Assembly: GCA_964412635.1 (NCBI GenBank)
Contig: CAYPPQ010000002.1
Location: 1 to 62,854 of the forward strand
Source of the DNA: an uncultured Planctomycetia bacterium
GTDB taxonomy: Bacteria > Planctomycetota > UBA8108 > UBA1146
Reading direction: 5' to 3'
DNA: 62,854 nt
Shown here: positions 34,848 through 57,467 of the stretch, piece by piece
Layout: every line of letters starts with the position of its first letter
How positions within the stretch are numbered: the first letter of the stretch is position 1
The notes under the pieces: model-generated
The model's input: only the letters and a program-made list of their open reading frames with translations
Told to the model about the DNA's origin: nothing
Databases searched by the model: none
Translations under genes and position numbers: made by a program

Positions 34848-34859
34848 GGTGGTCGCCCC

Positions 34860-36389: not shown

Positions 36390-36564
36390 GCCCAGAATCT
36401 ACCTCCCAAGGGGGTCCCAGGCCACGATGCTCCACGGGTTGACGCAGACTTCCTGAGACCGCACCTTTGGAACTGCTGTCAGGATGCGATCTGCGGAGCG
36501 TATCGTTCGACGGGAGATCCGCAACTTTTGCGGAGTTTTCAACGATTCAGGGGGGCTGAAGAGC

Positions 36565-42300: not shown

Positions 42301-42440
42301 ATGCTGTCGAGACCGCTTCCAGGCACCGAGAGCAGCTCGAAAGCTACCGCCAGGCCGTGAACACCATCTGGAAGATCGATCCGCAACAGATCGACCTGAA
42401 GGTGGTCCTGATCCGTAGTGGTGACATCGTCTCCCTCTAG
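39324..42440 (+). CDS. addA: AddA-like UvrD helicase-nuclease
   Basis: ASAGSGKT, DEFQDT, VGDPKQAIYGWRG, SYRS, MTVHQAKGL, YVAMTRA; nuclease GIIDRL...DFKTD...QLESY. ATGA overlap with addB. Confidence 0.9.
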   Translation: MTFSPHLLIRASAGSGKTHQLTSRFIGLLVAGEDPSGILAVTFTRLAAGEIMERVLIRMLQAIGNKESLEQLQQSLESVGFSRPTSDEVGAALRRLLEKLHLCTVSTLDAFFARIATAHTFECGLTPGWTILDNTQLDAVQTGAIQNLLSNGTDADARILMHRLNRGKSSSQVADQLQEIVSFGHAKYLEFPRDAWHNPEPIPAPPQADLDQARQLLQSVECPKTKTGTDHKNWRKALDGLSYWFEDPQRFDPLDLFESGIGKAVLAGQDRFHGVPISGDLFTVMEYVQAVARAQISRIIRTQNEATGELLSRFDHFRSLGLRARGGVAFQDIPQVLVIAGVLASANTILYRLDATTKHLLLDEFQDTSYLQFAAIRPLVEEIASDSAGGRSIFCVGDPKQAIYGWRGGRAEVLDHLEQYLLPGSDQTLEASYRSSPEILEAVNSVFGTLPSADWLVADRDAVSSWCENFHDHFTATGGPGDTPGHVVLKVAQHHEDRTREAAPYIDAIEEVERVRGIAPEATIAVLVRKNQNIARLVAALRERGIDASEEGGNPLVDSPAVGRIVALLELVEHPGDATMRLAVASSPLPDIAAKIGGFPAADWLQREVAVEVAETLRNRIHQQGISDAIAGLVSELAQSCGPEDRTRLQQMMEQIRIHDARGSRLENLIQHLRQHRLASPTGSTVQVMTVHQAKGLGRDVVILPELAAGWFKVLPKLLERSQVDDTTDSKLISRYVAEAHRTLLGCPYPEMHREVRRSRLQESLSVLYVAMTRARHSLTMIIPSEKKLTEASSAHLLWKTLGQEGSLTAGTILHEQGDPLSIKGVQGKQHQPAKEVKIPKLTGRAKAASKTPSHSTSFFTTDDSFRARSMGTLAHLAMEQIEWGAEEPDQLREVMLKEEPRIQHFFDESIEIVRHALQQECVKDLFDLQSARNRLGCQEGDEIVAEREIPFSCEMDGALFSGIIDRLVLRFHDQLPVAAEVIDFKTDRIAGDAVETASRHREQLESYRQAVNTIWKIDPQQIDLKVVLIRSGDIVSL

Positions 42441-44494
42441 GGGCAGGTCGGATGATCATCGCAAGGGAAGAATGCCCCTGCCGGAATTATCCCGCAATCG
42501 GGGAATGGTGGCGGAGGTGCGGTGCCTCCCGCATAGAGATAGTAAAGCAGTGAAATACCATCACTGATGTCGAGAGAACCGTCGGCATTCGCATCCGCCG
42601 CTTCCAGGCAACCGGGGATCGAGTTCTCGCCGAACACTCTACCGATCAGTAACACGGCATCGGCGAGGCGGATCCCCTGCACCCCATCGGCATCTCCACG
42701 GATGAATCGGATCTCGCACTCATCGAGTTCACCGTTTCCGTTCACATCATTGCTGGGCATCTCCAGGTCACAGGAATCCGGAATGTGGTTACTGTTGCAA
42801 TCCAATGCGTTCCCGGCGAGGAAATCACAGGAGTCTGGAATCATATTTTCGTTGCAATCCGGATCGCAGGAATCGATGACGGCATTGTCGTCGCAATCTT
42901 CCTCGCTGCCTTCGAGAAGCTCGCAGCTATCGAGGAGGCCATCGGCATCACAATCGAGGGTTCCGTCCGATAGGATCTCACAGACATCGGGAATCAGGTT
43001 CTGGTTGCAGTCGACCTGGCACAGGTCCGGGATGCCGTTTCCATCACAATCCATAACCTGCCCCGCTGCAACTGCGCAGGAATCGGGAATGCCATCCCCG
43101 TCGCAATCGGCAACGATTCCATCCCGTGTCGTACAGAGGTCCGGGATTCCATCTCCGTCACAATCCTCGGAGACTCCCATCCCGATTCCACAACCGTCCG
43201 GAATCCCATCGAGATCACAATCTGAATCACTTCCTGCGGCGATGGAGCAGGCGTCTGAAACACCGTCCTGATCACAATCAGTATCTCCGTAGATCTTCAC
43301 GACGATATTGCCCCCCGCCGGAGCGTTGGTAGATGCGAAGGGCGCGCCGATCACGACGACACCTCGATGCACGGCCACGGAAGAACCGAGGAAGGAACTG
43401 GGATTCCCGACCTGGACATCGAGCAGTTGCCAGCCACCTTGCCAGCGGAAGATCGACGCCGAACCGGAGGGAAACGCCTCTGCTCCCGTATCGGTCGGAG
43501 CTCCGATCGACAGGAGATTGCCGTCCAGATCGAGGATGGCACCGAAGGCGCAGCCGCTGGCGCCGGAAGGGGGCAGAAGGTACGGCCCCAGGACCCACAC
43601 CTGGCCCTCGCGATGGTAATGAACCACCGCGCCGGCAGCACTTCCACCGAGGTCAGAATAGGGAGCTCCCAGCAGGATGTGGTCCTCCGACACTGCCACC
43701 GAGGTACCGAGACGATCCCCCGGGTTCGCTGCCCCTGAACCGATGGAGAACTCCTCGATCCAGCTGCCAGCGGTGCCCGTGAAGTAGTATGCAGCGCCGG
43801 TGTCGGGCCCGAGATGATCACGACCTGGGGCCCCCACGATCAGTCGATGAGGGCCATCCAGATCGAGAGCAGTTCCGAACTGATCACCGGGGACACGGTC
43901 AGAGGCGAGCAATCTGTCATGGAACTCCCACACTCCCGCGGAATCGAGTTTCCAGATCGTCACGCAACCGACCGGTCCTGCTCCGGTTTCAAAATTAGGT
44001 GATCCCACCACGAGGGTGTCACCTGCAAGTTTCACACTGCTTCCAAAGCCATCAGCGACCTGAGCTCCCGGATCAAAAAGTACCTGTACAGTCGTCCAGG
44101 TCTGCTGAACACGCTCGAAGATCACCACCGAGCCGTTTCCAGTGGCACCCGCTGCCATTCGATTTCCATCTACCGCCAGAGATGCCCCGAACTCGGAGGT
44201 CACTTCTCCTGTCAACAGCTGTTCCAGTTGATATCCGCTGCTGGACTTACGAAAGACCCTGACACTACCGCTGAGCATGCCTCCACTATCGTCTCCGATG
44301 GCACCGGCAAAGAGCCGCCCGCCCGAGATGGCGACCGATCTTCCAAGATAGTCACCACCGCTGACGCCAAATATCTCCACGGTCCCGGTGGCACACTGCC
44401 CCGGCAGTATTCCCGACAACAGGATGAGGAGAATCGGTACCGTGAGCCCCTGGTACAGAATTGAAAGAGATGAATTGTGGGGCGCAGCACGCAT
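42437..44494 (-). CDS. Secreted protein: 7 FG-GAP-like repeats (beta-propeller), about 11 Cys/Asp Ca-binding repeats, dockerin-like (FIRGD) module
   Basis: Signal ending SGILPGQC; seven (F/L)Gxx(V/L)x(I/V/L) blades; repeats of D-C-(D/N)-x-(D/N)-x4-D-x-C; FIRGDADG and AADANADGSLDISDG. Likely start 44494. Confidence 0.82.
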   Translation of the reverse strand: MRAAPHNSSLSILYQGLTVPILLILLSGILPGQCATGTVEIFGVSGGDYLGRSVAISGGRLFAGAIGDDSGGMLSGSVRVFRKSSSGYQLEQLLTGEVTSEFGASLAVDGNRMAAGATGNGSVVIFERVQQTWTTVQVLFDPGAQVADGFGSSVKLAGDTLVVGSPNFETGAGPVGCVTIWKLDSAGVWEFHDRLLASDRVPGDQFGTALDLDGPHRLIVGAPGRDHLGPDTGAAYYFTGTAGSWIEEFSIGSGAANPGDRLGTSVAVSEDHILLGAPYSDLGGSAAGAVVHYHREGQVWVLGPYLLPPSGASGCAFGAILDLDGNLLSIGAPTDTGAEAFPSGSASIFRWQGGWQLLDVQVGNPSSFLGSSVAVHRGVVVIGAPFASTNAPAGGNIVVKIYGDTDCDQDGVSDACSIAAGSDSDCDLDGIPDGCGIGMGVSEDCDGDGIPDLCTTRDGIVADCDGDGIPDSCAVAAGQVMDCDGNGIPDLCQVDCNQNLIPDVCEILSDGTLDCDADGLLDSCELLEGSEEDCDDNAVIDSCDPDCNENMIPDSCDFLAGNALDCNSNHIPDSCDLEMPSNDVNGNGELDECEIRFIRGDADGVQGIRLADAVLLIGRVFGENSIPGCLEAADANADGSLDISDGISLLYYLYAGGTAPPPPFPDCGIIPAGAFFPCDDHPTCP
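42720..43290 (-). repeat. About 11 thrombospondin-type-3-like DCxxxGIPDxC peptide repeats
   Basis: DCDQDGVSDAC, DCDLDGIPDGC, DCDGDGIPDLC, DCDGDGIPDSC, DCDGNGIPDLC, DCNQNLIPDVC, DCDADGLLDSC, DCDDNAVIDSC, DCNENMIPDSC, DCNSNHIPDSC, DVNGNGELDEC. Boundaries are approximate. Confidence 0.88.
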
Positions 44495-44643
44495 CGACAA
44501 GACTTTCGGAACGAGGGATGGAAACTCCCGGGGGAGGGAGTGGTCGATCTCCATCCATCCTTCCGTCCGCTACGATTCTGTCAATCCACCGCGAGGCCGC
44601 TCGATAGCGTTGGACAGGATTGCTAGTTTGGAATCGTTTTTAC

Positions 44644-46038
44644 CTAGAGAGGATCACCGAGTCGACGAGGCCAGTGATCATCAGGTACTTCCGGTTGCTC
44701 TTCACTTGCTGGACGGATGTGATCGAGGAGGCCTTCCTCGACCTTGTCGTACTGAATCTGACCATCGATCACGGCCCACCGAACGTGTGTCATGTATGAA
44801 AGGATATCCCCATCCAAGATGATGAAATCGGCATCTTTTCCCACTTCGATGGAACCGACTCGATCGGACACACCGAGGATCCTCGCGGGCTCGATGGTGA
44901 TCGCTTCGACAGCCACATCTTCTGCAAGACCACCCCTCACCGCAAAGGCAGCTTCAAGTGGTAAGTGAGCGAGGTCCCTGCCAGCCAATCCCCACATGGC
45001 GATCCCGGTCGACCCGGGGAGTATCACGATGGGAACGCCGTACTCGTGCAGGATTCGAGCGTTTTCGATACTGGTGCCACTGTCGGAACCGCGACTCTCA
45101 TCGCGATCTCTTCGTGCCCTCGGAGTCAGCACGACCGATGCTCCACAGCGTGCAATCACTCCGGGATCGATCCACGCCTCTTCTGCCCCCTCGATGACGA
45201 GGCTGAATCCGAATCGGCGAGCGAGCGTGCACATCTCCCGGATATCAAAGATCTTGCTGAGTCGAACGAGAGCGACCGTCTCTCCCAGGATGAGGCCCTT
45301 CGCTACCGAATAGACCCCGCGAATCCACTTCTCGTCCGGTGCCTTCGCATCCGGATTCTCCTTCTTCTCGACCTGGTGGCGCTCTAGCTCCCGCAGGTGT
45401 TCCTGAACTCGTTCCAGTGCCCTGCGAAACTCACGTTTCTTCAGTGGATTCCTGCTGCTGTAGGAGATCGATGTGAAACTCTTCCGGCGTAGCGTCAGGT
45501 CGGTTACCGATCCTCGGATCAGTTTGGTGACGCGACTGCCATTCCAGGTCGATGTGATTCCTGCGGCGAGACCCATGGCGGTTCCCAGCGAGAAGGGATC
45601 CTGCGTCTTTTCCGCTTCTCCCGATCCCACCAAACCACTCGAACGAAAAGCAACGAGACCAGGGTAGACATGGTACCCCTCGGCATCGATTCTCTCGGCG
45701 GACTCAGGTATCTGTACATCGACTCCAAAGGAGGAGATCTTTCCGTCCTTGCACAGGACCGTGCCCGCGACGATCACCGGTCCGGTGACGGTATGGATGG
45801 TTGCGCCTTCGATGGCGAGGTACTCACCACCCGGTTCCTCCGGTTCGATCTCCTCTTTCGGGGGCTCGGGAGCTGGCGGAGGAGGAGGAGGCCTCCTGCC
45901 ACGACGTCTGCGCTGCGGTGGATCCTGTGCTTCGGCAACGCCGGCGACCTGGAGTGAGAGCCGGGCACCGAACGGGATGTCCGTGACCAGGAACAGGACT
46001 GCCAGCACCAGTAGAGATGATTTCAGTTTCAGGTTCAT
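44644..46038 (-). CDS. Secreted amidohydrolase-fold protein 8 (metal ligands absent)
   Basis: Signal peptide; IEGATIHTVTG; PGLVAFRSS in place of HxH; C-terminal ITIEPARILGVSDRVGSIEVGKDADFII. Start 46038 is an ATGA overlap. Confidence 0.85.
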   Translation of the reverse strand: MNLKLKSSLLVLAVLFLVTDIPFGARLSLQVAGVAEAQDPPQRRRRGRRPPPPPPAPEPPKEEIEPEEPGGEYLAIEGATIHTVTGPVIVAGTVLCKDGKISSFGVDVQIPESAERIDAEGYHVYPGLVAFRSSGLVGSGEAEKTQDPFSLGTAMGLAAGITSTWNGSRVTKLIRGSVTDLTLRRKSFTSISYSSRNPLKKREFRRALERVQEHLRELERHQVEKKENPDAKAPDEKWIRGVYSVAKGLILGETVALVRLSKIFDIREMCTLARRFGFSLVIEGAEEAWIDPGVIARCGASVVLTPRARRDRDESRGSDSGTSIENARILHEYGVPIVILPGSTGIAMWGLAGRDLAHLPLEAAFAVRGGLAEDVAVEAITIEPARILGVSDRVGSIEVGKDADFIILDGDILSYMTHVRWAVIDGQIQYDKVEEGLLDHIRPASEEQPEVPDDHWPRRLGDPL

Positions 46039-47372
46039 CGGCGATCCTCTCGATCCCATACGACCTCACCGGCGATGATCGTCTTCATCACCCTGGCACC
46101 CGGTTGTAGCGGATCCGCATCGAAGAGTACGAAGTGAGCCTGCTTGCCCGGCTCCACCGTACCCATCTCCTTCTCGAGACCGAGGAATCTGGCCGGTTCC
46201 GCTGTCACCGACGCGATGGCCTTCTCTGCGCTGAGCCCGTACCTCACCATCTCGGCGAGTTTCCCGGGGATCTCCTGCATCCCTGCGAGGTTGTCACTCC
46301 TCGGCAGGGTTATCAATCTGCAACCACTTCGAGAGAATGCCACTGGCATGTGGATTCTCGTATACGTGTCCGGAAGTGCACTCAGGCCCGAAGGCATCAA
46401 GAGAGTGGCTTCTCGTTCCGACAGGAGTTCGATCACTTCGTGAAATACTCCTCGACTGGTCGACAGCACGAAGCGATCGAGTGGATCCCGATCCTTCAAC
46501 TCTTCCACCCTGGAAAGTGCAGAGTCGAGATGCAGGATCAGTCCCGGCGTCGACGCCTCGAAGACGATCGGCAATGCATCGCTCTTCTCCTCGATGATCT
46601 TGACCAGTTCGAGGACTGCAGGGTTCATGGGAGGAGCAGTGAACTCCTTCTTCTCTGGCTTCTTGTCGTCCTTCTCTGGATTCTCCGCAGCAGCGTCGTC
46701 AGGCTTCTTCTTGGCCTCTTCCTCCGCTTTTTTCTTCGCTTCTTCCTGCTCCTTGTCCCACTTCTCCCGCGCTTTCTTGACCTTTTCGATCTCGCCGCGG
46801 GCGGCACCAAAAGCCTTATCGACGGAGGAGTAGATCCCGGAAGAACTTCTCCCTGAAAGTGGCAGGTACGCAGCCTTTTTCAGGACCCGGTCGCTGCTCT
46901 CCTGTGCGGTATGAACCACCACGGCATGCCCCGGGAATCCGGATCCACTGGGAATCAGCGTGGTGGCGACGAATCCGCACTCCAGGAAATCCTCCCAGGG
47001 CATCTCCGATTCGCGTAACTGGCGAAGTGGTGACCAGTCGCAGTGAGTACCATTGCGGGAGATGGGAGCGAGTCCGTAGGTCGACTTGGCGAGGATCATG
47101 CCGGCCATCAGGGTCTGGTTCCCCGCATCGATGACATCGGCGTTACTGGGATATTCAAGCTGGTTGCCGACCAGAGTGATCTTCCCCTCCTCGACGATCA
47201 CCTCACCTGGCTCGAGGATCTCACCGGTACCGGTGATGACCCGCCCAGCCCGAATCACGATGACTCGATCTTCGTCCGCCTGAACCGGTGGCGTTGATCC
47301 GGGTAGAGTCGCCGCCGAGACGAGAAGCAACAGTGCCAGGCAGTAGCAACGCTTCAGGGTGAAGTGGATCAT
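46035..47372 (-). CDS. Secreted amidohydrolase-fold protein 7 (metal ligands absent)
   Basis: Signal ending PPVQA; IRAGRVITGTG; AGMILAKST in place of HxH; VTAEPARFLG...GTVEPGKQAHFV. Start 47372 is a TGATG overlap. Confidence 0.85.
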   Translation of the reverse strand: MIHFTLKRCYCLALLLLVSAATLPGSTPPVQADEDRVIVIRAGRVITGTGEILEPGEVIVEEGKITLVGNQLEYPSNADVIDAGNQTLMAGMILAKSTYGLAPISRNGTHCDWSPLRQLRESEMPWEDFLECGFVATTLIPSGSGFPGHAVVVHTAQESSDRVLKKAAYLPLSGRSSSGIYSSVDKAFGAARGEIEKVKKAREKWDKEQEEAKKKAEEEAKKKPDDAAAENPEKDDKKPEKKEFTAPPMNPAVLELVKIIEEKSDALPIVFEASTPGLILHLDSALSRVEELKDRDPLDRFVLSTSRGVFHEVIELLSEREATLLMPSGLSALPDTYTRIHMPVAFSRSGCRLITLPRSDNLAGMQEIPGKLAEMVRYGLSAEKAIASVTAEPARFLGLEKEMGTVEPGKQAHFVLFDADPLQPGARVMKTIIAGEVVWDREDRR

Positions 47373-48622
47373 CAAAAGACTCTCTTCCCGCTGGCATCGT
47401 AGGTCACCTTGCCGTCGATCACCGTCAGTTCACAGGCGGATCGAGGATCGATGGGATCCCCGGTCCACAGGCAGAAATCTGCGTCGAGACCGACCGTGAT
47501 ACTTCCAAGACGATGATCCATCATCAGAGCCTCTGCAGGGATTCTGGTCACTCCCTTGAGGGCCTCGTACGGCGTCCAGCCGTAGTAGCAAGCCATCGAA
47601 GCCTGGTAGAACAGTTCCTCCTGGGGAATCACCGGCGAATCGGTATTGATCCCCAGTTGCCTGACCCCACCTTGCCACCAGCGTGCGGCGTTACCCATGA
47701 TGCGACGCTGAGTGCGATCGAAGTGGATCTGGCGCGGCCCATTGATGGTGTAGATCGATTCGTTCTCGTTGACGAGGGGAGCGACCTTCCACGCGTCGAA
47801 GGTGGAGTGATCGAGCACCGTTCGAATCCCGAAATCGCCTGCGACCATCTTCACCGTGGTCATCAGGACCTGATACATCTGGGTGTGAACCGAAGCGACC
47901 GTCTCCCTGCGAAAGAGTGGTCTGAACTCCTCCCAGTGAAGATCCTTGGGCGGTTCTACTTCGATCTCTCCCGCTTCCCATGCGGTGCGGGCGAGATGGT
48001 AATCCTGTGCCTTTTGCAGCGTCTGACGGGTGTTGAAATTCATGAAGGAACGACCGACCCCGTAGAAGTACCGTTCCGGATTACCTGCCTGGGCGATCTT
48101 CAGCGAGCCGGGGGCCTTCAACACCGCTTCCTCGACGGTACCGGTTCCAGCTGTCTTCAGGATCGTACCGAAGCCTGACATGTTGTTTCCACTACCTGGA
48201 ATCGTCAGAACCGTCGTCACTCCGCCGGCCCGTGCCCGCTCCATCTCGATCCCATCGGGAACGATCGACTCGAGAGTGCGCAGTCCAGGATTGGTCAGGT
48301 ACACGTAATCGTGAAGATCGGGACTCGATCCACCGGTGTGGTTGTGGCACTCCACCATTCCGGGGACCAGCCACAGATCGGGTTTCGAGATCACGGTGGC
48401 CCCGTCGGGAATCACCACATCCTTGTGAGATCCCAGCGCAGTGATCTTGCCATCGACGACGATGACCACTGCGTTGTTGATCACGCGGTCCTCGGCATCC
48501 ATCGTGACCACCTTGCCGACCCGGAACGCCATCGTCTCCGCAGCGACAGCCTCCCCCAGCGGCAGGAAGCCGGTCGCACCACAGAGCAATACGGTGAGTA
48601 AGTACATCGTGCAATTCCTCAT
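47372..48622 (-). CDS. Secreted amidohydrolase 6, the only paralogue with a full binuclear metal-site motif set
   Basis: PGMVECHNH (HxH), SLKIAQAGNP (Lys), SVHTQ (His), LDHST (His), INTDSP (Asp); GSITVGLDADF. ATGA overlap with the upstream gene. Confidence 0.9.
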   Translation of the reverse strand: MRNCTMYLLTVLLCGATGFLPLGEAVAAETMAFRVGKVVTMDAEDRVINNAVVIVVDGKITALGSHKDVVIPDGATVISKPDLWLVPGMVECHNHTGGSSPDLHDYVYLTNPGLRTLESIVPDGIEMERARAGGVTTVLTIPGSGNNMSGFGTILKTAGTGTVEEAVLKAPGSLKIAQAGNPERYFYGVGRSFMNFNTRQTLQKAQDYHLARTAWEAGEIEVEPPKDLHWEEFRPLFRRETVASVHTQMYQVLMTTVKMVAGDFGIRTVLDHSTFDAWKVAPLVNENESIYTINGPRQIHFDRTQRRIMGNAARWWQGGVRQLGINTDSPVIPQEELFYQASMACYYGWTPYEALKGVTRIPAEALMMDHRLGSITVGLDADFCLWTGDPIDPRSACELTVIDGKVTYDASGKRVF

Positions 48623-51345
48623 CGAGGAACCTCCTCTCCACCGATGAATACCCTCTTGAGACGACTTCCTGTCTCCATCGGGTGTCCATCCCAGATCAAC
48701 AGATCCGCATCCAGGCCCTTCTCGATGGAGCCGACGGTGTCGGAACTCCCCAGCGCCTCCGCTGCGCCGGTGGTCAGGGCTCGAAGTGCCTGATCAGCAC
48801 CCATACCCCGTTCCACCGCCTCCAGTGCTTTCCTCGGCAAGATCCTGGCACCGTCCGCCGCCACACTCTGGAAGGCGACATTGATCCCGCTTCTACTGAG
48901 AAAGGAACCGGGCGCAAATTCTTCATCCTTCAGGGAGTTGGTCGCCGCCGGCGGCAGGATCACCGACACCGATTTCTCTGCGAGCATCTCCCTGTAATAG
49001 AACATGTCCGCTCCGAGGCGCACCGTCAGTGGAATCTTGTTCTCGGCAAAGAAATCGATCACCGCTGCCGCAACGTCGAGGCCACTCGGTGTCACCACGA
49101 CGGGAATCTCCTTCTGGAGAACCGCTCTCACAGGTTCCAGTGCGAGATTCACCCGTGGAGGATTGGGACGGCCATCCTCGTCGCGCTTCTTGCGACGCTC
49201 GACCTTGAAAGCCTTCGCCTCCTTGCTGGTCCGGGTGCCGACCACATCAGCATTGAACTGCAAGATGGAGATGGTGCCGGTGAGAGAGTCTTCTCCCGTC
49301 AACTCGGCATTGATCCTCGGCTTCTCGGGGAGCACCCCATCTTCCACCTCGATGGATCCCTCGATGGTGGTTCCCGAGAGGGTTCCCACGACCCGCACCG
49401 GGATCGGAGGCGCAGGGTCGATGACCCTCCCCTCGAAATTGTCGCCTTGCAAGGTGATGGAGAGTTTCACCTCCTCCGGTTCCGGTATCGGACCACCACT
49501 GATGGACAGTTCCCAGATTCCGGTGAGAGGATCGGGGCCGCTCTCTTCGACGACCGTTTCCTCCACCTCCTCCTTCTTCTCGATCTTCTCCCCCGCAGCT
49601 TTCTTTTTCTTCCATTCCGCGAGGTCTTTCTCGTACTTGGTCCACGAATCGAGGTACTTCTTACCCTGTCCCAGCAACATCTTCACTCGATCGAGTGCAT
49701 CGTCTGGATGACCACCAACCTCGAGAAGCAGGGCCGTGACATCGCTACCGATCCTGTCGGAGCGAGTGCGCCCGGCGGTCTTCACCATCACTCCGGTGCC
49801 CGCCCCACGCTGCAATCGCTTGGGGGTCAGCAACTGGGAGGTCACGCCCGCCCTGGCGACACGATGTTCCGGCGCATCGGCGGCTCCGATGATCCGGCCA
49901 AGTCGATCTCCGGTTCCCGCCGAGGCCTGGTCTCCGCGCAACCCGAGGTGTCCGTAACTGTCGATGAAACCGGGAACGATGAATCCATCAGGACCGGCGT
50001 CCACCACCCTCGAATGGGGTGGATGGGGAACTCGATGACCGACCGCAGCGATCTTGCCATCTTCCATCAGCACCTCACCATCCTCGATCCGCTGATCTGG
50101 CGAGATCCAGATGGTTCCACCACGGATCACCGTGGCAGTTTCCTGGCGAGGAACCCATGCACGAAGACCATCGGCATAGACCGCCATCGGCTGGGCAGAG
50201 AGATTCCATGGTCCACGATTCCAGATGACGAGATCTGCGTCGCAACCCTCTTTCAGTTCTCCTACACGGTCTGCCACCCCGAGGATCCGTGCCGGATGCG
50301 AGGTGACCAGTGGAATCGAGTCGTTTGGATCCTCCATGTGGGCGGCGACTTCCATCAGTGCCCAGCGCAGTTGCCCGAGATCATTGCCTGGTGGTGCCAA
50401 GGCCACCATCGCATCCGCTCCCAGCAGAGGCCATCTGTCGAGCCCTTCAACCGGCTCATCGTTGAAACCGACATCTCCCTTGGGAGCAGCAACTCGAAGC
50501 ACCAGAGGAATCCCGGCGGCCGTCACAGCCGACGCAACCTCCTGGATCTCCTCACCTCCAACGATGTATCCGGGACGATCCTTGCCACGCATGAAGGAGA
50601 TCGCAGCCAGAATCTCGGCGGCCCGGGAAGCGACCATCCGCAACGGCAGGTCGGAAGCCCAGGCGGTGGCGAGGATCTCGTGCTCTGCTGGATCCTTCTG
50701 CGCCGCTCCGATCGCCTCACTCAGTGCCAGCAATCTTCCGATGCGACTGCGCGGCCTCTGAGGAGTGGGAGCGTTGATGGCTACATCACTGGATGCGGGG
50801 AAGGGAATCTCGAGCAGCGGCCTGGGATTGTCGACCGCATCGGTAATCGACAGGGACAGATCGGCCGTGCGACTCAGGATTCGCTGATGTGCGCTACCGA
50901 CCAGCTTGACCACGGCACCCTGTCCACTGAGAAGCCGATGCTCTCCAGGACTGATGTGTGCGCTGGTCACACCCGTTTCCAGCTGTGGGCGATAGTCCCC
51001 GTAGCGATCGAAACCATCCGCTGCCTGGAACGCAGCAGAGACATTTTCCGGTGCGGTATGGGGAGCGACGATGGAACTGGAAGCGGCAACCCAGCCCGGT
51101 GTCACGTAGGCATCCGGCCAGTGAATCAGCGGCAGATCGAACAGCATCTCGTCTTCGGATAACTGTTGCCACGGTCCGCTACGCACCACCTTGCCGTCGC
51201 GAACCGCCACCGCTCCATCGACGATGACATCGGTTCCAGTGTGGACGGTGCCCGCGCGGATCAGGAACCCATCGGCTGCCTGAGCCGATTGCACGGGCTG
51301 AACCAGGAGCAGTAAGATCCCCGTCAGGATCACAGGTAAACGCAT
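48619..51345 (-). CDS. Secreted amidohydrolase-fold protein 5: two tandem degenerate domains, with a beta-rich insert in the second
   Basis: Signal MRLPVILTGILLLLVQPVQSAQA at ATG 51345; the track's 51618 start runs into the upstream gene. Domain a has PGWVAASSS; domain b has PGFIDSYGH. Both end in GxLKEGxDAD/GSIEKGLDAD. Confidence 0.85.
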   Translation of the reverse strand: MRLPVILTGILLLLVQPVQSAQAADGFLIRAGTVHTGTDVIVDGAVAVRDGKVVRSGPWQQLSEDEMLFDLPLIHWPDAYVTPGWVAASSSIVAPHTAPENVSAAFQAADGFDRYGDYRPQLETGVTSAHISPGEHRLLSGQGAVVKLVGSAHQRILSRTADLSLSITDAVDNPRPLLEIPFPASSDVAINAPTPQRPRSRIGRLLALSEAIGAAQKDPAEHEILATAWASDLPLRMVASRAAEILAAISFMRGKDRPGYIVGGEEIQEVASAVTAAGIPLVLRVAAPKGDVGFNDEPVEGLDRWPLLGADAMVALAPPGNDLGQLRWALMEVAAHMEDPNDSIPLVTSHPARILGVADRVGELKEGCDADLVIWNRGPWNLSAQPMAVYADGLRAWVPRQETATVIRGGTIWISPDQRIEDGEVLMEDGKIAAVGHRVPHPPHSRVVDAGPDGFIVPGFIDSYGHLGLRGDQASAGTGDRLGRIIGAADAPEHRVARAGVTSQLLTPKRLQRGAGTGVMVKTAGRTRSDRIGSDVTALLLEVGGHPDDALDRVKMLLGQGKKYLDSWTKYEKDLAEWKKKKAAGEKIEKKEEVEETVVEESGPDPLTGIWELSISGGPIPEPEEVKLSITLQGDNFEGRVIDPAPPIPVRVVGTLSGTTIEGSIEVEDGVLPEKPRINAELTGEDSLTGTISILQFNADVVGTRTSKEAKAFKVERRKKRDEDGRPNPPRVNLALEPVRAVLQKEIPVVVTPSGLDVAAAVIDFFAENKIPLTVRLGADMFYYREMLAEKSVSVILPPAATNSLKDEEFAPGSFLSRSGINVAFQSVAADGARILPRKALEAVERGMGADQALRALTTGAAEALGSSDTVGSIEKGLDADLLIWDGHPMETGSRLKRVFIGGEEVPR

Positions 51346-51346
51346 C

Positions 51347-52939
51347 CTAGCGACCTCCCCCCGCCGGCTGATCCGTGGAACTGCCATCCGGTTCCTTCGC
51401 TGGCGGATCCTCGTCGGACTGATCCTTCTTTTCCGAACTCTCCTGGATCGGTTCCCCACTATCGCCCGATTTCTCTTCATCGCCGGGGACGGTTTCACCC
51501 TCTCCAGCACCCTCTCCCTCGGAGTCAGCTCCTTCTTCGGCTGCTGCCTCACCATCGAGAGGAGTCGGCGGCGTCGGCTCTTCTTCCACCTCGGGGAACA
51601 ACTTCTCGAGGCGTGCATCTTTTTCGCGGTCGTAGGCGAGGATTCCCTCGACGTACACCTTTTGCACCCACGAGTTGAAGTCGAGAGGATTGCCGGTCCA
51701 CATCACCAGGTTGGCGATCTTTCCCGACTCGATGGAACCGTATTGCTTGGCGATCCCGCACACCTCTGCGGCACCCAGGGTGATCTTGCGCAGTGCCTTT
51801 TGCGGATCGAGACCGGCGCGGACCAGGCGAGCCGCCTGGTAACCGAGGAATCTCTCCGGCATGGCATTGGAACGAGCCGGCTGAATCGCAAATTTCACCC
51901 CGGCCTTCATGTAGACCGCTGGAATGAAGGTCTCCTTCACGTCACTGGTGATGGGATCACGCTTGCGGAAGATCATCTCGGCACCGAGAACCACCGGCAA
52001 GTCCGCCTCGGCGATTTCTTCCACGGCAAGGTGAGAATCCCCTCCCATGACGAGGACTGCCCGTCCCTGCCACTGACGATCCTCGATCAGAGCCACAGCA
52101 GGAGCCACATCGGTGGCAGCTCCGCAGTAAATCCACGCTCCCAGCCTACCGTCTTCGAGATAGGAGAGATGCCGGTGTGCATCGTCCAGATCCTCGTCCT
52201 CGATCAGTTCCATCCCCTTGCTCCGCGCCTCTTCAGGAGGCAGTGGATCGACATCGTCTTCCTTCTCTGCGTGCATCTCGTACTTTGTCTCGGCGAGATC
52301 TTGTCGCCAGCGATCGAGTTCGTGGAACACCTCGCGCAACTCTGCAAGCTGGCGCTGTCTCTCGTATCCCGTCCTGGGAGTCGTTGACATTTTCAGCGCC
52401 ATACCAGGCATACTCGTCATCTCATCCGGGGAAAGACCGATGGGGTGGACGACTCGACTGACCCCACCGACCACGCAGTTATTGCCCTGCATGACATGGA
52501 TGGTAGTGACCCCATTGCGCAGAGAATCCTCGAAGAAGAAACGAGAGGGATCGATGGCGTCATAGACATCGACGAAGGGGGCTGAGGGAAGATTTTCGTT
52601 GGGTACATCTAGCCCGTCAGCACTGTGTGGATCGACAAACCCCGGTGCCAGGGTCATGCCGGTGCAATCGACCTCCATCGCATCGTAGGGAATCGCCATT
52701 GCCCCATCGCCGACGGCGGTGATGATTCCATTCTCCACCAGAACCACGCCACCCTCGATGGTCGGTCCCGAGACGGTGATCACCGTACCTCCGGTGAATG
52801 CGACCTTCGAGCCCCTTTCCGTCGCCTCGGCGGCGGACAGGGTGACGAAAATGGTGACCAAAACGGCAATCACCAGTGGGAGTGTCTTCATGTTATTCAG
52901 CTTCATCGCTTGCTTGCCTCCAGGGATCCTCATGATCAT
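51347..52939 (-). CDS. Secreted amidohydrolase-fold protein 4 (partial ligands) with a long acidic disordered C-tail
   Basis: Signal ending SAAEA; PGFVDPHSA keeps one His; ALKMS keeps the Lys; later His/His/Asp are replaced; GSIESGKIANLV. Start is 52939 (ATGA overlap) or 52906. Confidence 0.85.
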   Translation of the reverse strand: MIMRIPGGKQAMKLNNMKTLPLVIAVLVTIFVTLSAAEATERGSKVAFTGGTVITVSGPTIEGGVVLVENGIITAVGDGAMAIPYDAMEVDCTGMTLAPGFVDPHSADGLDVPNENLPSAPFVDVYDAIDPSRFFFEDSLRNGVTTIHVMQGNNCVVGGVSRVVHPIGLSPDEMTSMPGMALKMSTTPRTGYERQRQLAELREVFHELDRWRQDLAETKYEMHAEKEDDVDPLPPEEARSKGMELIEDEDLDDAHRHLSYLEDGRLGAWIYCGAATDVAPAVALIEDRQWQGRAVLVMGGDSHLAVEEIAEADLPVVLGAEMIFRKRDPITSDVKETFIPAVYMKAGVKFAIQPARSNAMPERFLGYQAARLVRAGLDPQKALRKITLGAAEVCGIAKQYGSIESGKIANLVMWTGNPLDFNSWVQKVYVEGILAYDREKDARLEKLFPEVEEEPTPPTPLDGEAAAEEGADSEGEGAGEGETVPGDEEKSGDSGEPIQESSEKKDQSDEDPPAKEPDGSSTDQPAGGGR

Positions 52940-54483
52940 TTCAATCCTCCACCTGCATTGAAGGAAATCACTCCTTCATGGAGAACTTTTTCAACTCTTG
53001 AGAGGGACGAGAACGGAGTTCCGCTCCAGACAACCAGGTCCGCCTTCTTTCCTGCTTCAATCGTTCCCACCATCGTCTCGATACCGAGTAAACGAGCAGG
53101 ATTCTGTGTCACCAGTTGGAGTGCTTGGCGCGGATCAACCCCGTGGCGGATGGCGAGCATCACCTGGCGGGCGAGACCCTCCTCACCCCTCAGATCCTGA
53201 GCACTCAGCGACACCTCTACCTCGGATTCGATCAGATCCCGGAGGGTACTGAGTCGGGAATCACGACTCTCGTTGGTACCTGCCAGGATGCCGCTGGGGC
53301 TGTCGTAAACGGGACCGAACACCACATCGACATCACGACTGGCGAGCAGGTCGACTCGTTTCCAGGCCTCGACCGGATCTTCCAGTATGAAGTTCAGACC
53401 GAACTCTCCGCTGAGCCGGAACGCGGTCTCGATGTCGGGAGCGGTTCGTGCCTGGATGCGCAGAGGGATCTCCCCGGCGAGCACCTGCGACAGAACCCGC
53501 GACGCTTCAGGGCTCGACGTGTCTGCACCGGTGGGGTCGATTCCATTGGCTCGCAGGAATGCGTCGTGAAACGCCTTCCGGAAGACCCACGCCACTCCCA
53601 TGCGGCTGTCGGGTCTGCGGGTGTAGACACTCACGATGTTGCGGAACGGACTTCGATTTCGCGATCCGTAGCGATAGGCATCGCTGCCCAGCACGCCCTT
53701 GACCGCGCCCGCTCCGATGTATCGGGATGCGAGTGGTCCCCCCGTCTTCAACATCGATCCTCGACTGCCGATCACCGCCGACGAATCGGGGCTGACATAG
53801 ACGGTGGTCACACCTTCACGCAGCAGCCGATCGAAATCGTCCGATCCCTGATCGAGGGCATCGAGAACTTCGAACTGCGGGACCACCTCACTCGATTGCT
53901 CGTTGACAACTCCACTGGGCGCTGGCACTCCGGCAGCTCGATTTCCGCTGACCAGGCTCTCGATCATCTCCTCGGTCGGATCATGCGGATGGGGATCGTG
54001 GTCTGGCCAGCCACAGTAGAGACACATCTCTTCCTCGACGTGCAAGGTCAGTGCTGGACAGACGGTTCCACAGGGGCACACGTCACCACCGTGATAGTGT
54101 TTCTCCAGCCCCATCGCCTTGAGAATCTGCAGTCGAGGACTCTCTCCCGGAAAATCGATGGCATCCGCCACATCGATGCGGGCGTTGGCATCGATCATTC
54201 CCGGCGTGATGTCGGAAACCCGGAGAATCGTGGCACCTTCAGGGGCGGTCGCCCCCGCCTGCACGCTCTGGATGGTTCCATCCTTGATGGTGATCAGTGC
54301 TTGCTCGACGACGGAGCCATCACCGATATGGGCCCGCTCCGCCAGGATGACCACATCACGGATCAACTCTTCTTCCGATGCGACGGCGCTCCCCACCAGA
54401 CAGAAGAGAGCCAGCATCGGCAGGAGCAACTGCCAGCTGCGATTGTTCAGCAAGGATCTCCGCCTCGGGACTGTACTGTTCAT
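52936..54483 (-). CDS. Secreted amidohydrolase-fold protein 3 (ligands absent) with a Cys/His-rich insert
   Basis: Signal with RRRSLL, ending SAVA; PGMIDANAR; GVTTVYVSP; AVKGVLG; VTQNPARLLG...GTIEAGKKADLV. Confidence 0.87.
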   Translation of the reverse strand: MNSTVPRRRSLLNNRSWQLLLPMLALFCLVGSAVASEEELIRDVVILAERAHIGDGSVVEQALITIKDGTIQSVQAGATAPEGATILRVSDITPGMIDANARIDVADAIDFPGESPRLQILKAMGLEKHYHGGDVCPCGTVCPALTLHVEEEMCLYCGWPDHDPHPHDPTEEMIESLVSGNRAAGVPAPSGVVNEQSSEVVPQFEVLDALDQGSDDFDRLLREGVTTVYVSPDSSAVIGSRGSMLKTGGPLASRYIGAGAVKGVLGSDAYRYGSRNRSPFRNIVSVYTRRPDSRMGVAWVFRKAFHDAFLRANGIDPTGADTSSPEASRVLSQVLAGEIPLRIQARTAPDIETAFRLSGEFGLNFILEDPVEAWKRVDLLASRDVDVVFGPVYDSPSGILAGTNESRDSRLSTLRDLIESEVEVSLSAQDLRGEEGLARQVMLAIRHGVDPRQALQLVTQNPARLLGIETMVGTIEAGKKADLVVWSGTPFSSLSRVEKVLHEGVISFNAGGGLK

Positions 54484-55688
54484 CGGTTTCCTCCCAGTTC
54501 GCTGATGGCTTCCGTGGAACGGATGGGAAGGCGCTCGCCTGCCACCCAGACCTTGAGAACCCGTGCTCCCGGATCGAGGGGATCGGTGCTGAAGAGCACC
54601 AGGTCTGCCCTCGCTCCCGGAGCGATGACACCGGTGTTACTCGCCTCGACAGCCCGCGCGGGATTGCTGAAGAGCGCTCTCCGCGCTGCGGCCGGGTCGA
54701 GTCCAGCCGCCACGGCGATGGCTGCGCTGCGTCTGAGGTGATCGGAATCGTGGCGCGGCAACCCTCCACGAAATGCCAGTTCGACCCCCACCTCGGCGGC
54801 TCGAACTGCAGTATCTACCGCTGCGGAATCAGCCCCTTCCTGGAAGGGGCCCACCACCATCAACGCATCGGTGCGAGCGGCGAGACGATCGATGGGAGAT
54901 CGTGCATCTCCGTCGTGGATCAGTACCGGAAGCGTTCCCCAGTTACCTTCTGATACACCGTTGGCTGCTACCGGTAACTGTCCCCAACCGGCATCGAGGG
55001 CCTGCCTCAAGTCGATCGCTTCGGGACAGTAGAGGAACCCGGGGTTGCTGCGGATGGTGTGGCTCGTCGTGCTCGTATCGTAGTGCAGCGCAGTTTTCCA
55101 CCGGGCGACCATCGACACCCGGGAGGTGGGCTCACGGGAGGAATCGAGAACCGAACCGGAGAGGGCGAAGAAGGGCAGATCAGTGCCGAGCGATACCGCT
55201 GCGGCATTCGACTGACACAGGAAGGTCGCCGTCTTGCCGTTGACCAGCCCGCTGGGAGCAGCGGCGATGGTGGTGTAGAGGATTCCCTCCCTGGCCGCCT
55301 GGCCCAGGTGGGGATCGGTCGGATCGAACCCCTCACTGGCAGACAATCCCCAGTCCCACAGCTTGGTCCCCGCCTGCAACGATCCGCGACCTCCAAGGGA
55401 GCCGAACAGATCGTGTAATCCGGGAGCGAGAATCGCTCCAGCGGGTGCTTGCACGGTGCGGAACTCATCACCATCCACCTGATCGGAGGGGATCACCCCC
55501 TCGATGTTTCCGTCGGCACCGACCACCACTGCCATTCCGGGACAGATGCTACCGTCCCCTGAAACCACCCCGACATCGGTGATGACGAGAGACTTCAGCG
55601 GCGCTGAAGAACCATGACCGGTTTGCCAGAAAGCCGTCGCCAACAGCGACGAGAAGAGCAACAGAATCACCGTCGAAAGATGCCGCAT
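54480..55688 (-). CDS. Secreted amidohydrolase-fold protein 2 (ligands absent)
   Basis: Signal MRHLSTVILLLFSSLLATA; PGLHDLFGS; LFSNPARAV...GVIAPGARADLV. Start 55688 is a TGATG overlap. Confidence 0.83.
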   Translation of the reverse strand: MRHLSTVILLLFSSLLATAFWQTGHGSSAPLKSLVITDVGVVSGDGSICPGMAVVVGADGNIEGVIPSDQVDGDEFRTVQAPAGAILAPGLHDLFGSLGGRGSLQAGTKLWDWGLSASEGFDPTDPHLGQAAREGILYTTIAAAPSGLVNGKTATFLCQSNAAAVSLGTDLPFFALSGSVLDSSREPTSRVSMVARWKTALHYDTSTTSHTIRSNPGFLYCPEAIDLRQALDAGWGQLPVAANGVSEGNWGTLPVLIHDGDARSPIDRLAARTDALMVVGPFQEGADSAAVDTAVRAAEVGVELAFRGGLPRHDSDHLRRSAAIAVAAGLDPAAARRALFSNPARAVEASNTGVIAPGARADLVLFSTDPLDPGARVLKVWVAGERLPIRSTEAISELGGNR

Positions 55689-57076
55689 CAGAAACTCCCT
55701 TCCCGGGTACCGGCAGGTCGCTGCCACAGCACCTTGCCGTTGATGATCACCCGTTCCGGACGAGCTGCCGGATCTACCGCCGGGTTACCGCTCCACAGCA
55801 CGACCTCGTTGCTGCCCCGGCGCAGCCAGCCTCCAGCGCGCCCCTGACTTCCCTGGCGGATGCCCAGCTGCAGCGGATTGGTGTCGGGGTCTGCCCCCGC
55901 TCTCTGCTGAAAGACTCTCCACAGGGAGGTGCTCTCGCCGCCACTACCCAGCGACCACGGGATCTCCGCCTCGTCGAGTCGGCTCAGCAGCGAGGGATCG
56001 TGACGAGGAGTGGCTCCTCGCTGGAACTGTCCGCTCCCTCCATCGAGGAGCAACTCGACATCTTCCAGTTCCTGGAGCTCTTCCAGCAGCAGGTGAGCCT
56101 CGTCCGCGCCGTGGATGATCGCCTTCAGCTGAAATTCCTCGATGAGGTCGATGGCATTCTGTATATCCTCGCTCCTGCGAGCGGTGATCAGCACCGGCAG
56201 ATCGTGATCGAGAGCCTTGAGAACCAGTTCACCAGCGGGATTTCTTCCCGGACGACCCGGCTTCTCGGGCCCCTTCTCCTCTTCAGCGTCCCCGTCCTTC
56301 TCGGACTCGTCCGCCTTCTTGTCATCCCCCTCTTCTCCCTCTTTCTCCTTCTTCTCCGCCGCTTCTTTCAGAGCTTCCAGATACTCCTCGAGATCTTCCG
56401 AGTAATCATCGGACTGATCGCGAAGATCTCGCGCCGAGATGAATTCCTTGCGCAGGCTCTCGTAGGTGCGAATCCTCTGGATGGAGCCTCCGACGCTGAG
56501 ATCGATGTGAAGCGCCACATCGTCATCGCTCGGCTTTCCGAAGCCACCATTGTCGCGCGCCTGTAGCGACACGGAGGTGACGCGACCGACGATTCCGGCG
56601 GATCCCTTCGGTACCAGGTGGACCCGGGTGATCCCCGAGGCGAGTACCTGCAGGATCTGTTTCGAATCGAAGCGGTCAAATCCATCCCAGGCCCTGTGGA
56701 TCGCTCCCCCCTTCGAGGTCGGCGTCAGGGTCAGTGACGAGGAGAGATCGGTCAGCCCTGCGGTGGCGTAGAGTCCACCCACCTTGGGCTTCCGAGCCAT
56801 CATGTTGCCCTCTGCGTCACTTCCGATCGCCTGGATGCGGCCCTGGCGCAAGACGATATTGATCCCCTCGGCGACGGTGCCGTCTGGCCGAGGCACGTGG
56901 ACCCCTTCCAGAACTACATCCCTGGCAAAGAACCCCTGTGCCAGCAGCGACGTGGAAGAACCACACAGCAGCATTAGCAGCAGACAGACCCTGGAGAGAT
57001 GGCATCCAGCGCGGACAGGAGATCCCCTGCCGACGCGCAACGGGAGAGAACAGTTGAGCTTCATCTTCGTCATCAT
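55688..57076 (-). CDS. Secreted amidohydrolase-fold protein 1 (ligands absent; C-terminal motif eroded)
   Basis: Signal ending STSLLA; AGLTDLSSS; SGITRVHLVP; LITARRSEDI; IHGADEAH. Likely start 57076 after an AGAGGG RBS. Confidence 0.8.
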   Translation of the reverse strand: MMTKMKLNCSLPLRVGRGSPVRAGCHLSRVCLLLMLLCGSSTSLLAQGFFARDVVLEGVHVPRPDGTVAEGINIVLRQGRIQAIGSDAEGNMMARKPKVGGLYATAGLTDLSSSLTLTPTSKGGAIHRAWDGFDRFDSKQILQVLASGITRVHLVPKGSAGIVGRVTSVSLQARDNGGFGKPSDDDVALHIDLSVGGSIQRIRTYESLRKEFISARDLRDQSDDYSEDLEEYLEALKEAAEKKEKEGEEGDDKKADESEKDGDAEEEKGPEKPGRPGRNPAGELVLKALDHDLPVLITARRSEDIQNAIDLIEEFQLKAIIHGADEAHLLLEELQELEDVELLLDGGSGQFQRGATPRHDPSLLSRLDEAEIPWSLGSGGESTSLWRVFQQRAGADPDTNPLQLGIRQGSQGRAGGWLRRGSNEVVLWSGNPAVDPAARPERVIINGKVLWQRPAGTREGSF

Positions 57077-57215
57077 TTTCCCTCTGATTTTCGGCCTGTT
57101 GACTGATTTTTGCAGATCCACCGCATCTCCACGCGGATCTCCTGTCCGCGGAAGAACGAGTACATCAGGGGCTCCCTGATCGGTCATGGTATCGCGAGAC
57201 GACCATCCGGCTCTC

Positions 57216-57234
57216 ACCCGCAGGTCCTGCGGGT
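57216..57234. promoter_or_regulatory. Perfect 9-1-9 inverted repeat ACCCGCAGG-T-CCTGCGGGT in the divergent amidohydrolase-operon/pdxS intergenic region
   Basis: The palindrome is read directly from the sequence; an operator role is inferred. Confidence 0.45.
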
Positions 57235-57467
57235 CTGCCAACAAAAAATAGGTCCCCATCTCCGAAAAATCCGGAAACTTCCCCAGGCACCTTGGATACT
57301 TCCCCAATGCAATCCGGCAGTTCTGACGTCAGGGTATCCTCTCCAATGGTTCCCTGAAAGTACTGTCTGGGCATCGATCCACTCGCATCCAGCACCCCGA
57401 GAAGGCAAGATCTGGTTTGATGCCAACAGGCGGGATCTCGATCCACCCGCCGGGAGAGGACCATACC

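Follow-up and report, generated by a model that had tools for sequence, protein, structure and literature searches.

Why would a bacterium keep eight consecutive genes for one protein fold when only one of the products appears equipped for catalysis? This question is raised by an operon at positions 44644-57076 of a 62,854-nt stretch of DNA (the window) from an uncultured Planctomycetia bacterium (GCA_964412635.1, contig CAYPPQ010000002.1). The operon consists of eight open reading frames (ORFs), g1 to g8, placed back to back on the minus strand and encoding nine amidohydrolase-fold domains, of which g5 holds two (g5a and g5b). A sequence-only reading of the window had described these eight genes and nine domains and proposed that their products co-assemble; the ORFs confirm the description. 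The answer that we favor, with moderate confidence, is that the products would form an exported, pseudo-symmetric hetero-oligomer of eight dead scaffold domains with g6 as the sole live subunit.

Active sites, fold, and predicted export signals of the nine domains

The canonical ligand set of the superfamily comprises HxH after strand 1, Lys or Glu on strand 4, His on strand 5, His on strand 6, and Asp on strand 8, and its positions were transferred through profile alignments. H93, H95, K175, H246, H272, and D328 of g6 were invariant in 35 of 35 orthologues, and the full set was also found in 154 of the 157 g6-like copies from other operon variants, the three others being N-terminally truncated. 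Each of the eight remaining domains kept at most three of the six positions, and direct reading past the PG motif agreed with this result. Three positions were retained in g4 (H105, K183, and H255; 29 of 31 orthologues), two in g7 (H282 and D361), and one in g5b (H466); none was kept in g1, g5a, or g8, and essentially none in g2, which has lost HxH, K, and D. The placement of the g3 HxH by global alignment was unreliable and probably wrong. Read directly, g3 has no conserved HxH there and carries PGMIDANAR in place of PGxxxxHxH, with N..R behind the PG motif, and its beta5 His, beta6 His, and beta8 Asp positions are occupied by Q, D/E, and A, respectively. The replacement residues in the dead domains form no conserved alternative motif.

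Loss of the ligands was not accompanied by decay of the genes, all of which were intact in every genome examined (approximately 150). Ratios of nonsynonymous to synonymous substitution rates (dN/dS), computed against a locus with 89–98% identity (L007), were 0.056 for g6 and 0.08–0.33 for g1–g5, g7, and g8, with 0.10 for g1 and the loosest constraint of the eight, 0.33, for g2. Residues conserved at 95% or more accounted for 33% of g6 versus 8–18% of the other genes. In all-against-all profile scores g6 was the outlier, and the dead domains were nearer to each other than to g6. These results indicate, as far as sequence can tell, that g1–g5, g7, and g8 are pseudoenzymes that have lost their catalytic residues and kept their fold under purifying selection, and that g6 is the only subunit predicted to be catalytically competent. 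The earlier view of eight amidohydrolases thus does not hold in the catalytic sense, as only g6 has the metal and catalytic residues. A derivation of the domains from a duplicated pair with alternating A and B types was also considered and set aside: the groups {g1, g3, g5a} and {g4, g5b, g7, g8} were only loose, g2 was ambiguous, and g7 fell on the wrong side, which makes the idea suggestive, not demonstrated.

To characterize the fold, orthologue alignments for each gene were taken from related loci and compared as profiles (hhalign). Pfam matches to Amidohydro_1 (PF01979) and Amidohydro_3 (PF07969) were obtained for g2–g8, with two stretches in g5, and covered almost only the last 60–100 residues and the N-terminal composite strand. 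Scores for g3–g8 were at or above the gathering score, and g2 was borderline with weak matches to both models at its C-terminus; Amidohydro_1 E values were 1.7e-14 (g3), 2.4e-11 (g4), 5e-11 (g7), and 1.1e-12 (g8). No Pfam match was found for g1, which also lacks all six catalytic positions. All nine domains, g1 included, aligned over their full length with the g6 family profile at a probability of 99.8–100% (99.8% for g1 and g2). The best score against NCBIfam NF051886 (Cc2672-type Xaa-Pro/Xaa-Arg/Lys dipeptidase) was the 69 bits of g6, against a cut-off of 500; the remaining proteins scored 19–63 bits, all far below threshold. Under this curated threshold, g6 is not classified as a Cc2672-type dipeptidase.

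A sequence search of the Protein Data Bank (PDB), run with phmmer for g1, returned 3OOQ first for g6 (7.8e-38), g3 (1.5e-35), g8 (1.3e-16), and g1 (4.6e-4). This entry is an uncharacterized Thermotoga maritima amidohydrolase from structural genomics; its alignment with g6 spans the full length, and it is the sole credible PDB match of g1. Models of g6 and g5 were made with AlphaFold2 (AF2). The g6 model (predicted local distance difference test [pLDDT] 78.5; predicted template modeling score [pTM] 0.79) matched 3OOQ with a template modeling (TM) score of 0.75–0.80 and an E value of 2e-29, and the next family, Cc2672, reached a TM score of only 0.51. The g5 model (pLDDT 86.5; pTM 0.73) consists of two amidohydrolase-fold halves, and its best PDB match was again 3OOQ (TMt 0.75; E value, 7e-22), with the runner-up at 1e-10. 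By these comparisons, 3OOQ is the closest solved relative of the tested proteins g1, g3, g5, g6, and g8. g6 belongs to the amidohydrolase superfamily in its 3OOQ-like branch; the other eight domains qualify through their fold alone and do not carry the catalytic set.

Several domains carry additions to the common fold. In g5, which keeps its two-domain form down to 29% identity, g5a covers aa ~26–397 and g5b aa ~404–901; the latter contains a 32-residue helix (aa 552–583) followed by an inserted 8-strand beta domain (aa 609–707, window ~49225-49521; AF2 pLDDT ~80). Long K/E-rich inserts occupy the site of the 3OOQ helical insert in g1, g5b, g7, and g8. Right behind the expected HxH position of g3 (aa ~128–165, window ~53989-54102) lies a Cys/His-rich insert, HYHGGDVCPCGTVCPALTLHVEEEMCLYCGWPDHDPHPHDP, whose conservation among orthologues is no more than moderate; it could form a module built around a metal or disulfides. 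Neither this insert nor the g5b beta domain had a Pfam match. The acidic low-complexity tail of g4 (aa ~450–530, window 51347-51590), approximately 80 residues long, is not conserved.

Signal peptides were judged by a heuristic analysis of n-, h-, and c-regions. In this analysis, all eight N-termini showed a basic n-region and an 11-residue hydrophobic core (Kyte–Doolittle 2.15–3.39), which agrees with the N-terminal hydrophobic signals seen earlier on each protein. The c-regions consist of small residues with AXA-like sites, such as AVA|S, AQA|A, AVA|A, and AEA|Q, and a heuristic scan of the eight proteins detected no transmembrane-like segment beyond the N-terminus. The N-terminus of the cytoplasmic 3OOQ aligns with g6 residue ~28, right past the predicted AVA|A cleavage site. 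The products are therefore predicted to be exported via Sec. The signal of g8 may be a signal anchor rather than a cleaved peptide; it is followed directly by a Pro/Arg-rich linker (aa 38–70), QDPPQRRRRGRRPPPPPPAPEPP, and a distant g8 orthologue (L097_p9) has a Pro-rich N-terminus as well.

Gene order, copy number, and fusions across Planctomycetota

The junctions within the operon read exactly as the sequence-only reading had given them. TGATG, a 1-nt overlap, joins g1 to g2 and g6 to g7; ATGA, a 4-nt overlap, joins g2 to g3, g3 to g4, g5 to g6, and g7 to g8; and g4 and g5 are separated by 1 nt (TAG-g-ATG). At every junction, a GGAGG-like motif lies 6–10 nt upstream within the preceding gene, and a Shine-Dalgarno-like GAGGG stands 5 nt ahead of the g1 start codon (ATG at 57076). 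A scan for consensus promoters and terminators gave matches at or below chance and was uninformative. Identity between the paralogues was 24–32% in long local alignments, in keeping with their earlier description as highly divergent, and no additional paralogue of the operon genes was found in the rest of the window.

The exact window sequence is present in marine metagenome assemblies. Genome scans located the operon in metagenome-assembled genomes (MAGs) of Planctomycetota labeled Pirellulales/Pirellulaceae, Planctomycetales/Planctomycetaceae, Phycisphaerae, UBA1146, and similar, and relatives of g6 with two conserved motifs were present in at least 482 species-level genomes. To determine the gene order, every ORF of 152 planctomycete loci was labeled with nine domain hidden Markov models (HMMs); loci L047–L158 were left out of HMM building and thus served as an independent test. 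The order g1-g2-g3-g4-g5-g6-g7-g8 was complete and canonical in 87 of the 152 loci and partial yet canonical in 58, which were cut by contig or locus ends; the other seven deviated through labeling artefacts only. In every complete locus, g1 was first and g8 last. The arrangement is not due to chance, since it recurs in approximately 150 other genomes.

The seven non-catalytic genes were always single-copy. The sole real variation in copy number concerned g6-like genes, with one to five copies invariably placed between g5 and g7. The window's clade has a single copy, as seen in 66 complete operons. A second clade has two (20 complete operons), which makes nine genes and ten domains as in the nine-gene variant L097, and a third clade has three, four, or five. 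The sequence-only reading had held that scattered, shuffled, or numerically variable homologues would speak against a complex. The order was never shuffled in the 152 loci, but the gene number did vary, from 7 to 12, through fusions and the one to five g6 copies. Tight junctions were conserved at g5/g6 in 79 of 86 loci, at g7/g8 in 76 of 85, and at g1/g2 in 55 of 69.

The operon has so far been found only in uncultured Planctomycetota. Carriers labeled Bacillota, Vicinamibacteraceae, Flavobacteriales, Myxococcota, Chlamydiales, and Paceibacteria are probably mis-binned or mis-scaffolded, because their copies are 60–85% identical to planctomycete ones. A complete-chromosome MAG labeled Gemmatimonadota with only g4–g8 (L036) was rejected as an exception and attributed to scaffolding, because the segment lies between 100-N runs (5548-5647 and 13656-13755); other public MAGs suspected of mis-binning or mis-scaffolding are L012, L061, L138, and L157. 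Genome scans and protein searches for a cultured carrier gave only MAG and metagenome records, which does not prove absence from isolates. No such cluster appeared among the rows listed of the transposon-insertion sequencing (Tn-seq) supplement for Planctopirus (PMC10632474). Full-text literature searches returned neither a description of the operon nor a function for 3OOQ; the sequence-only reading had likewise known of no description of an eight-gene version.

When g8 was compared exhaustively by phmmer with 1.84 billion representatives, 8863 relatives scored E ≤ 1e-3, of which 227 reached E ≤ 1e-30. Gene fusions emerged once the best 150 relatives had been labeled by domain. The g1, g2, and g3 domains occur as one protein in P0443, P0492, P0502, and P0503, and g7 and g8 in P0378 and P0389; g5a and g5b are fused everywhere. 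In locus L179, the [g1g2g3] fusion replaces the separate genes in an otherwise canonical operon that continues with g4 and g5, and L180 reads g1 g2 g3 g4 g5 g6 [g7g8] with g6 intact. The fusions thus join neighbors in gene order, which suggests, by the Rosetta-stone argument, that the products act together 1:1 and probably touch. In another locus (L020, MAG UBA1146, 5801-10222), g4 and g5 form one uninterrupted 1472-aa ORF; either the two genes are naturally fused there, or the assembly is wrong by one base at TAG-g-ATG.

Multi-domain relatives also occur on their own. Stand-alone proteins of approximately 1300–1570 aa with a signal peptide (P0392, P0396, P0397, P0404, and others) are composed of a dead, an intact 3OOQ-like, and a dead domain; in L181 (8001-12428), such a protein is encoded by a single gene outside any paralogue operon. 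G-x-W...G-x-I-x-G repeats like those of the g5b insert were also found in the stand-alone triple-domain proteins P0404, P0419, and P0484. Two-domain proteins of approximately 830–920 aa that combine a catalytic with a dead domain (g6-pseudo) exist as well. The triple-domain family is apparently also without published characterization.

Table 1. Features of the amidohydrolase-fold operon and its upstream region (positions in the window).
Feature	Position	Strand	Length	Description
g1	55688-57076	-	462 aa	Dead amidohydrolase-fold protein with putative signal; most eroded paralogue; K/E/D-rich insert
g2	54480-55688	-	402 aa	Dead paralogue with putative signal
g3	52936-54483	-	515 aa	Dead paralogue with putative signal; Cys/His-rich insert after strand 1
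g4	51347-52939	-	530 aa	Degenerate paralogue with putative signal; acidic disordered C-terminal tail
g5	48619-51345	-	908 aa	Putatively exported fusion of two dead amidohydrolase-fold domains
g6	47372-48622	-	416 aa	Predicted sole catalytically intact subunit; putatively exported 3OOQ-like binuclear-metal amidohydrolase
g7	46035-47372	-	445 aa	Dead paralogue with putative signal; K/E-rich insert
g8	44644-46038	-	464 aa	Dead paralogue with putative signal; Pro/Arg-rich linker; conserved C-terminal tail
Divergent intergenic region g1/pdxS	57077-57416			Presumed operon promoter region

Proposed co-assembly of the products and competing explanations

A hetero-oligomer of this kind could have arisen from a large homo-oligomeric ancestor resembling 3OOQ, whose subunits would no longer have been interchangeable after duplication. 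A common descent from such an ancestor is suggested by the mutual homology of all nine domains and by the homo-oligomeric state of their nearest relative. Outside the cytoplasm, the products would combine in fixed ratios to form a pseudo-symmetric particle, in which the dead domains would serve as scaffold or gate and g8 perhaps as a membrane tether. Only g6 would perform the chemistry and is expected to hydrolyze an amide bond, probably one like those of peptides or N-acyl amino acids; this is our best guess because characterized relatives hydrolyze dipeptides, N-acyl amino acids, and ochratoxin. In lineages with two to five g6-like genes, the copies would be exchangeable catalytic isoforms on the same scaffold. 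The earlier proposal of co-assembly is partly supported in this form: order, tight junctions, fusions, and the oligomeric 3OOQ speak for it, but eight active enzymes and a fixed gene number had to be given up. The split into active and inactive subunits parallels the proteasome analogy that accompanied that proposal.

The 3OOQ entry contains 10 chains, and it is listed among homomeric dihedral complexes in a docking benchmark of 10–30 chains (bioRxiv 10.64898/2026.08.06.736029). Ten chains together with dihedral symmetry point to a decamer of D5 (five-fold dihedral) symmetry. By analogy, the operon might encode a periplasmic pseudo-D5 hetero-decamer with the dead domains in eight fixed places, paired with their gene neighbors as g1.g2, g3.g4, g5a.g5b, and g7.g8, and live g6 in two slots, a proposal that we regard as tentative and, on balance, unlikely. 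On the same tentative footing, the two slots would be taken in the window's clade by g6 itself as a homodimer and in the nine-gene variant by g6 together with g6'. The decamer suits the ten-domain variant and, with two copies of the g6 product, the window's operon as well. The data do not entail it, and clades with three to five g6 copies need exchangeable isoforms. A strict rule that ten domains make the decamer was rejected, as other clades have 9, 11, 12, or 13 domains because the copy number of g6 varies.

Several observations weigh against a single particle of dead scaffold and live g6. Physical co-assembly, stoichiometry, and substrate class are what we infer from sequences, and the signal peptides come from the heuristic analysis only. 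Many genomes have loose junctions at g3/g4 and g6/g7, and the total of domains differs between clades from 9 to ~13, so that one fixed stoichiometry is impossible for every lineage. The ligands left in g4 (H, K, H), g7 (H, D), and g5b (H) mean that these domains may still bind metal or ligand. Moreover, conserved order and fusions also occur in pathway enzymes that are merely functionally linked.

There is a low but appreciable probability that no single particle exists and that the dead paralogues act separately as periplasmic binders, delivery modules, chaperones, or regulators that meet g6 transiently or in small heterodimers. Loss of catalysis under purifying selection would fit binding proteins equally well, the variable number of g6-like genes suggests modularity, and the stand-alone pseudo-catalytic-pseudo and g6-pseudo proteins show that two or three domains can suffice. 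However, seven single-copy genes held in a fixed order in approximately 150 genomes exceed the need of independent binders, the fusions link dead domains mutually (g1-g2-g3, g7-g8, and g5a-g5b) and not just to g6, and the nearest solved relative is a 10-chain homo-oligomer. The inserts and tails invite another explanation, a structural or envelope assembly that uses the fold as the block of a lattice, in the periplasm or on the cell surface, or of a pore-associated structure, with g6 only maturing or remodeling an envelope amide bond. It would suit the signal-peptide-like N-termini of all eight proteins, the K/E-rich inserts (g1, g5b, g7, and g8), the g4 acidic tail and the g8 Pro/Arg-rich stalk, the confinement of the operon to a phylum with an unusual envelope, and the FG-GAP repeat protein that lies behind the operon in the window's clade and nearby in L097. 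We nevertheless consider it highly improbable, as the flanks vary by clade with no conserved envelope-biogenesis neighbor, and g6 is both the most constrained and the duplicated gene, so that catalysis looks like the central function.

The least probable of the three alternatives, given very little weight here, makes all nine domains enzymes: the dead ones would work through non-canonical active sites, and the operon would encode independent hydrolases that carry out the successive steps of a catabolic pathway. Against the absence of an alternative motif, the limit of three ligands in six per dead domain (essentially none in g1, g2, g5a, and g8), and the far faster evolution of the dead genes, with 8–18% invariant residues versus 33% in g6, it can set the assignment to the amidohydrolase superfamily by Pfam and NCBIfam, the few ligand positions conserved in g4, g7, and g5b, and the general knowledge that some superfamily members have mononuclear sites or variant ligand sets. 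In the loci examined, the operon interior also contained no transporter, regulator, or non-paralogous pathway enzyme. Each of these three explanations accounts less well than the hetero-oligomer for the invariant seven-gene scaffold together with the fusions between dead domains.

Genomic surroundings, known systems, and significance

The flanks of the operon differ between clades (pdxS/FG-GAP, lpxA-like/AhpC, or HEAT-VWA), so the operon appears self-contained and its neighbors give no functional clue. In the window, pdxS (PF01680) starts at 57417 on the plus strand, divergent from g1. At the other end, 90 nt downstream of g8, an FG-GAP repeat protein of 705 aa with a signal/anchor-like N-terminus is encoded at 42437-44554 (-). 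This gene is kept there in the window's clade (51–89% identity) and, past a gap of ~1 kb, in L033, and is not at the 3' side of g8 in Pirellulales- or Phycisphaerae-type loci; in L097, another FG-GAP protein lies just upstream of the nine-gene variant. The FG-GAP neighbor may be an accessory peculiar to certain clades, or its position may be coincidental.

Elsewhere in the window, positions 56-16532 (+) hold a pfa-type polyunsaturated fatty-acid synthase with an oleABCD-like set immediately behind it (thiolase/KAS III, alpha/beta hydrolase, AMP-ligase, and 3-beta-HSD-type reductase). The pfa part includes an ORF of 1700 aa with AT, several ACPs, KR, and DH and one of 2252 aa with KS/CLF and two FabA-like DH domains, and the whole looks like a locus for long-chain polyunsaturated olefins. 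A PAC2-family protein, whose domain is related to proteasome assembly chaperone 2, is encoded at 22651-23580 (-). At 32001-36389 (-), the catalytic subunit of a molybdopterin oxidoreductase (948 aa) stands beside a 509-aa fusion of a 4Fe-4S dicluster domain with an NrfD/PsrC-type membrane domain. An AddB-like PD-(D/E)XK nuclease (947 aa) overlaps an AddA-like UvrD helicase-nuclease (1038 aa) at 36484-42440 (+), and this pair converges on the FG-GAP gene.

Among known systems, 3OOQ has the HxH/K/H/H/D set in common with g6 and resembles the operon proteins in the helical insert that follows strand 4 and precedes strand 5. Unlike the operon, it is a homo-oligomer from one gene, without signal peptide and with every subunit intact. 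COG1228/MEROPS M38-like enzymes, including the Xaa-Arg/Lys carboxypeptidases Cc2672 and Sgx9260b/c, prolidases, ochratoxinase, and long-chain aminoacylases, belong to the same superfamily branch as g6, have a binuclear metal center with a carboxylated Lys, and include many 8-chain entries (3BE7, 4C60, and 8IHQ). Their chemistry, hydrolysis of C-terminal amide or peptide bonds, is the likeliest kind for g6, but they are far more distant than 3OOQ (TM score ~0.5; E values, 1e-14 to 1e-16) and are homo-oligomers of active subunits. The stand-alone triple- and two-domain relatives resemble the operon in their 3OOQ-like domains, signal peptide, and mixture of dead and live domains, some also carrying a beta-domain insert resembling that of g5b; they differ in being one polypeptide of two or three domains with no paralogue operon.

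Inactive amidohydrolase-fold partners and mixed active/inactive paralogous particles are already known. The CRMP/DRP family forms hetero-tetramers of inactive amidohydrolase-fold subunits related to dihydropyrimidinase, and Pseudomonas PyrC' is an inactive dihydroorotase within the aspartate transcarbamoylase (ATCase) complex. Like the dead domains of the operon, both have kept the fold, lost the metal ligands, and taken an oligomerization or scaffold role; unlike them, they comprise one or few paralogues, are cytoplasmic, and belong to the dihydropyrimidinase/dihydroorotase branch. The 20S proteasome and CCT also descend from homo-oligomeric ancestors and became ring particles of diverged paralogues in fixed positions, and in eukaryotes the proteasome is still active in some of its beta subunits only. 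Their fold and chemistry are unrelated, and these particles are experimentally established, whereas the present one is read from genes; it would also differ in being encoded by a bacterial operon and in the copy number of its active subunit between lineages. We know of no operon-encoded, exported assembly of eight dead and one live amidohydrolase domain.

The complete parts list of the operon is now known. In these genomes, approximately 1,200 genes that bear the annotation "amidohydrolase family protein" almost certainly do not encode enzymes. If the products assemble, they would make the first hetero-oligomeric particle of amidohydrolase-fold paralogues. How homo-oligomers evolve into assemblies of paralogues has been learned chiefly from the proteasome, CCT, and a few ferritins; the operon would add a bacterial example of unusual clarity, in which a homo-oligomeric enzyme turned into an obligate assembly of mostly dead subunits. 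Should the pseudo-D5 arrangement hold, it would represent a bacterial extracytoplasmic counterpart of the logic of constitutive versus immuno-proteasomes, of which, to our knowledge, nothing similar is known on the amidohydrolase fold. For the organisms themselves, the particle would be a conserved extracytoplasmic machine in abundant uncultured Planctomycetota of marine, freshwater, and sediment habitats. Members of this phylum are thought to process macromolecules inside an enlarged periplasm, and the particle, if real, may therefore bear on their harvest of organic nitrogen.

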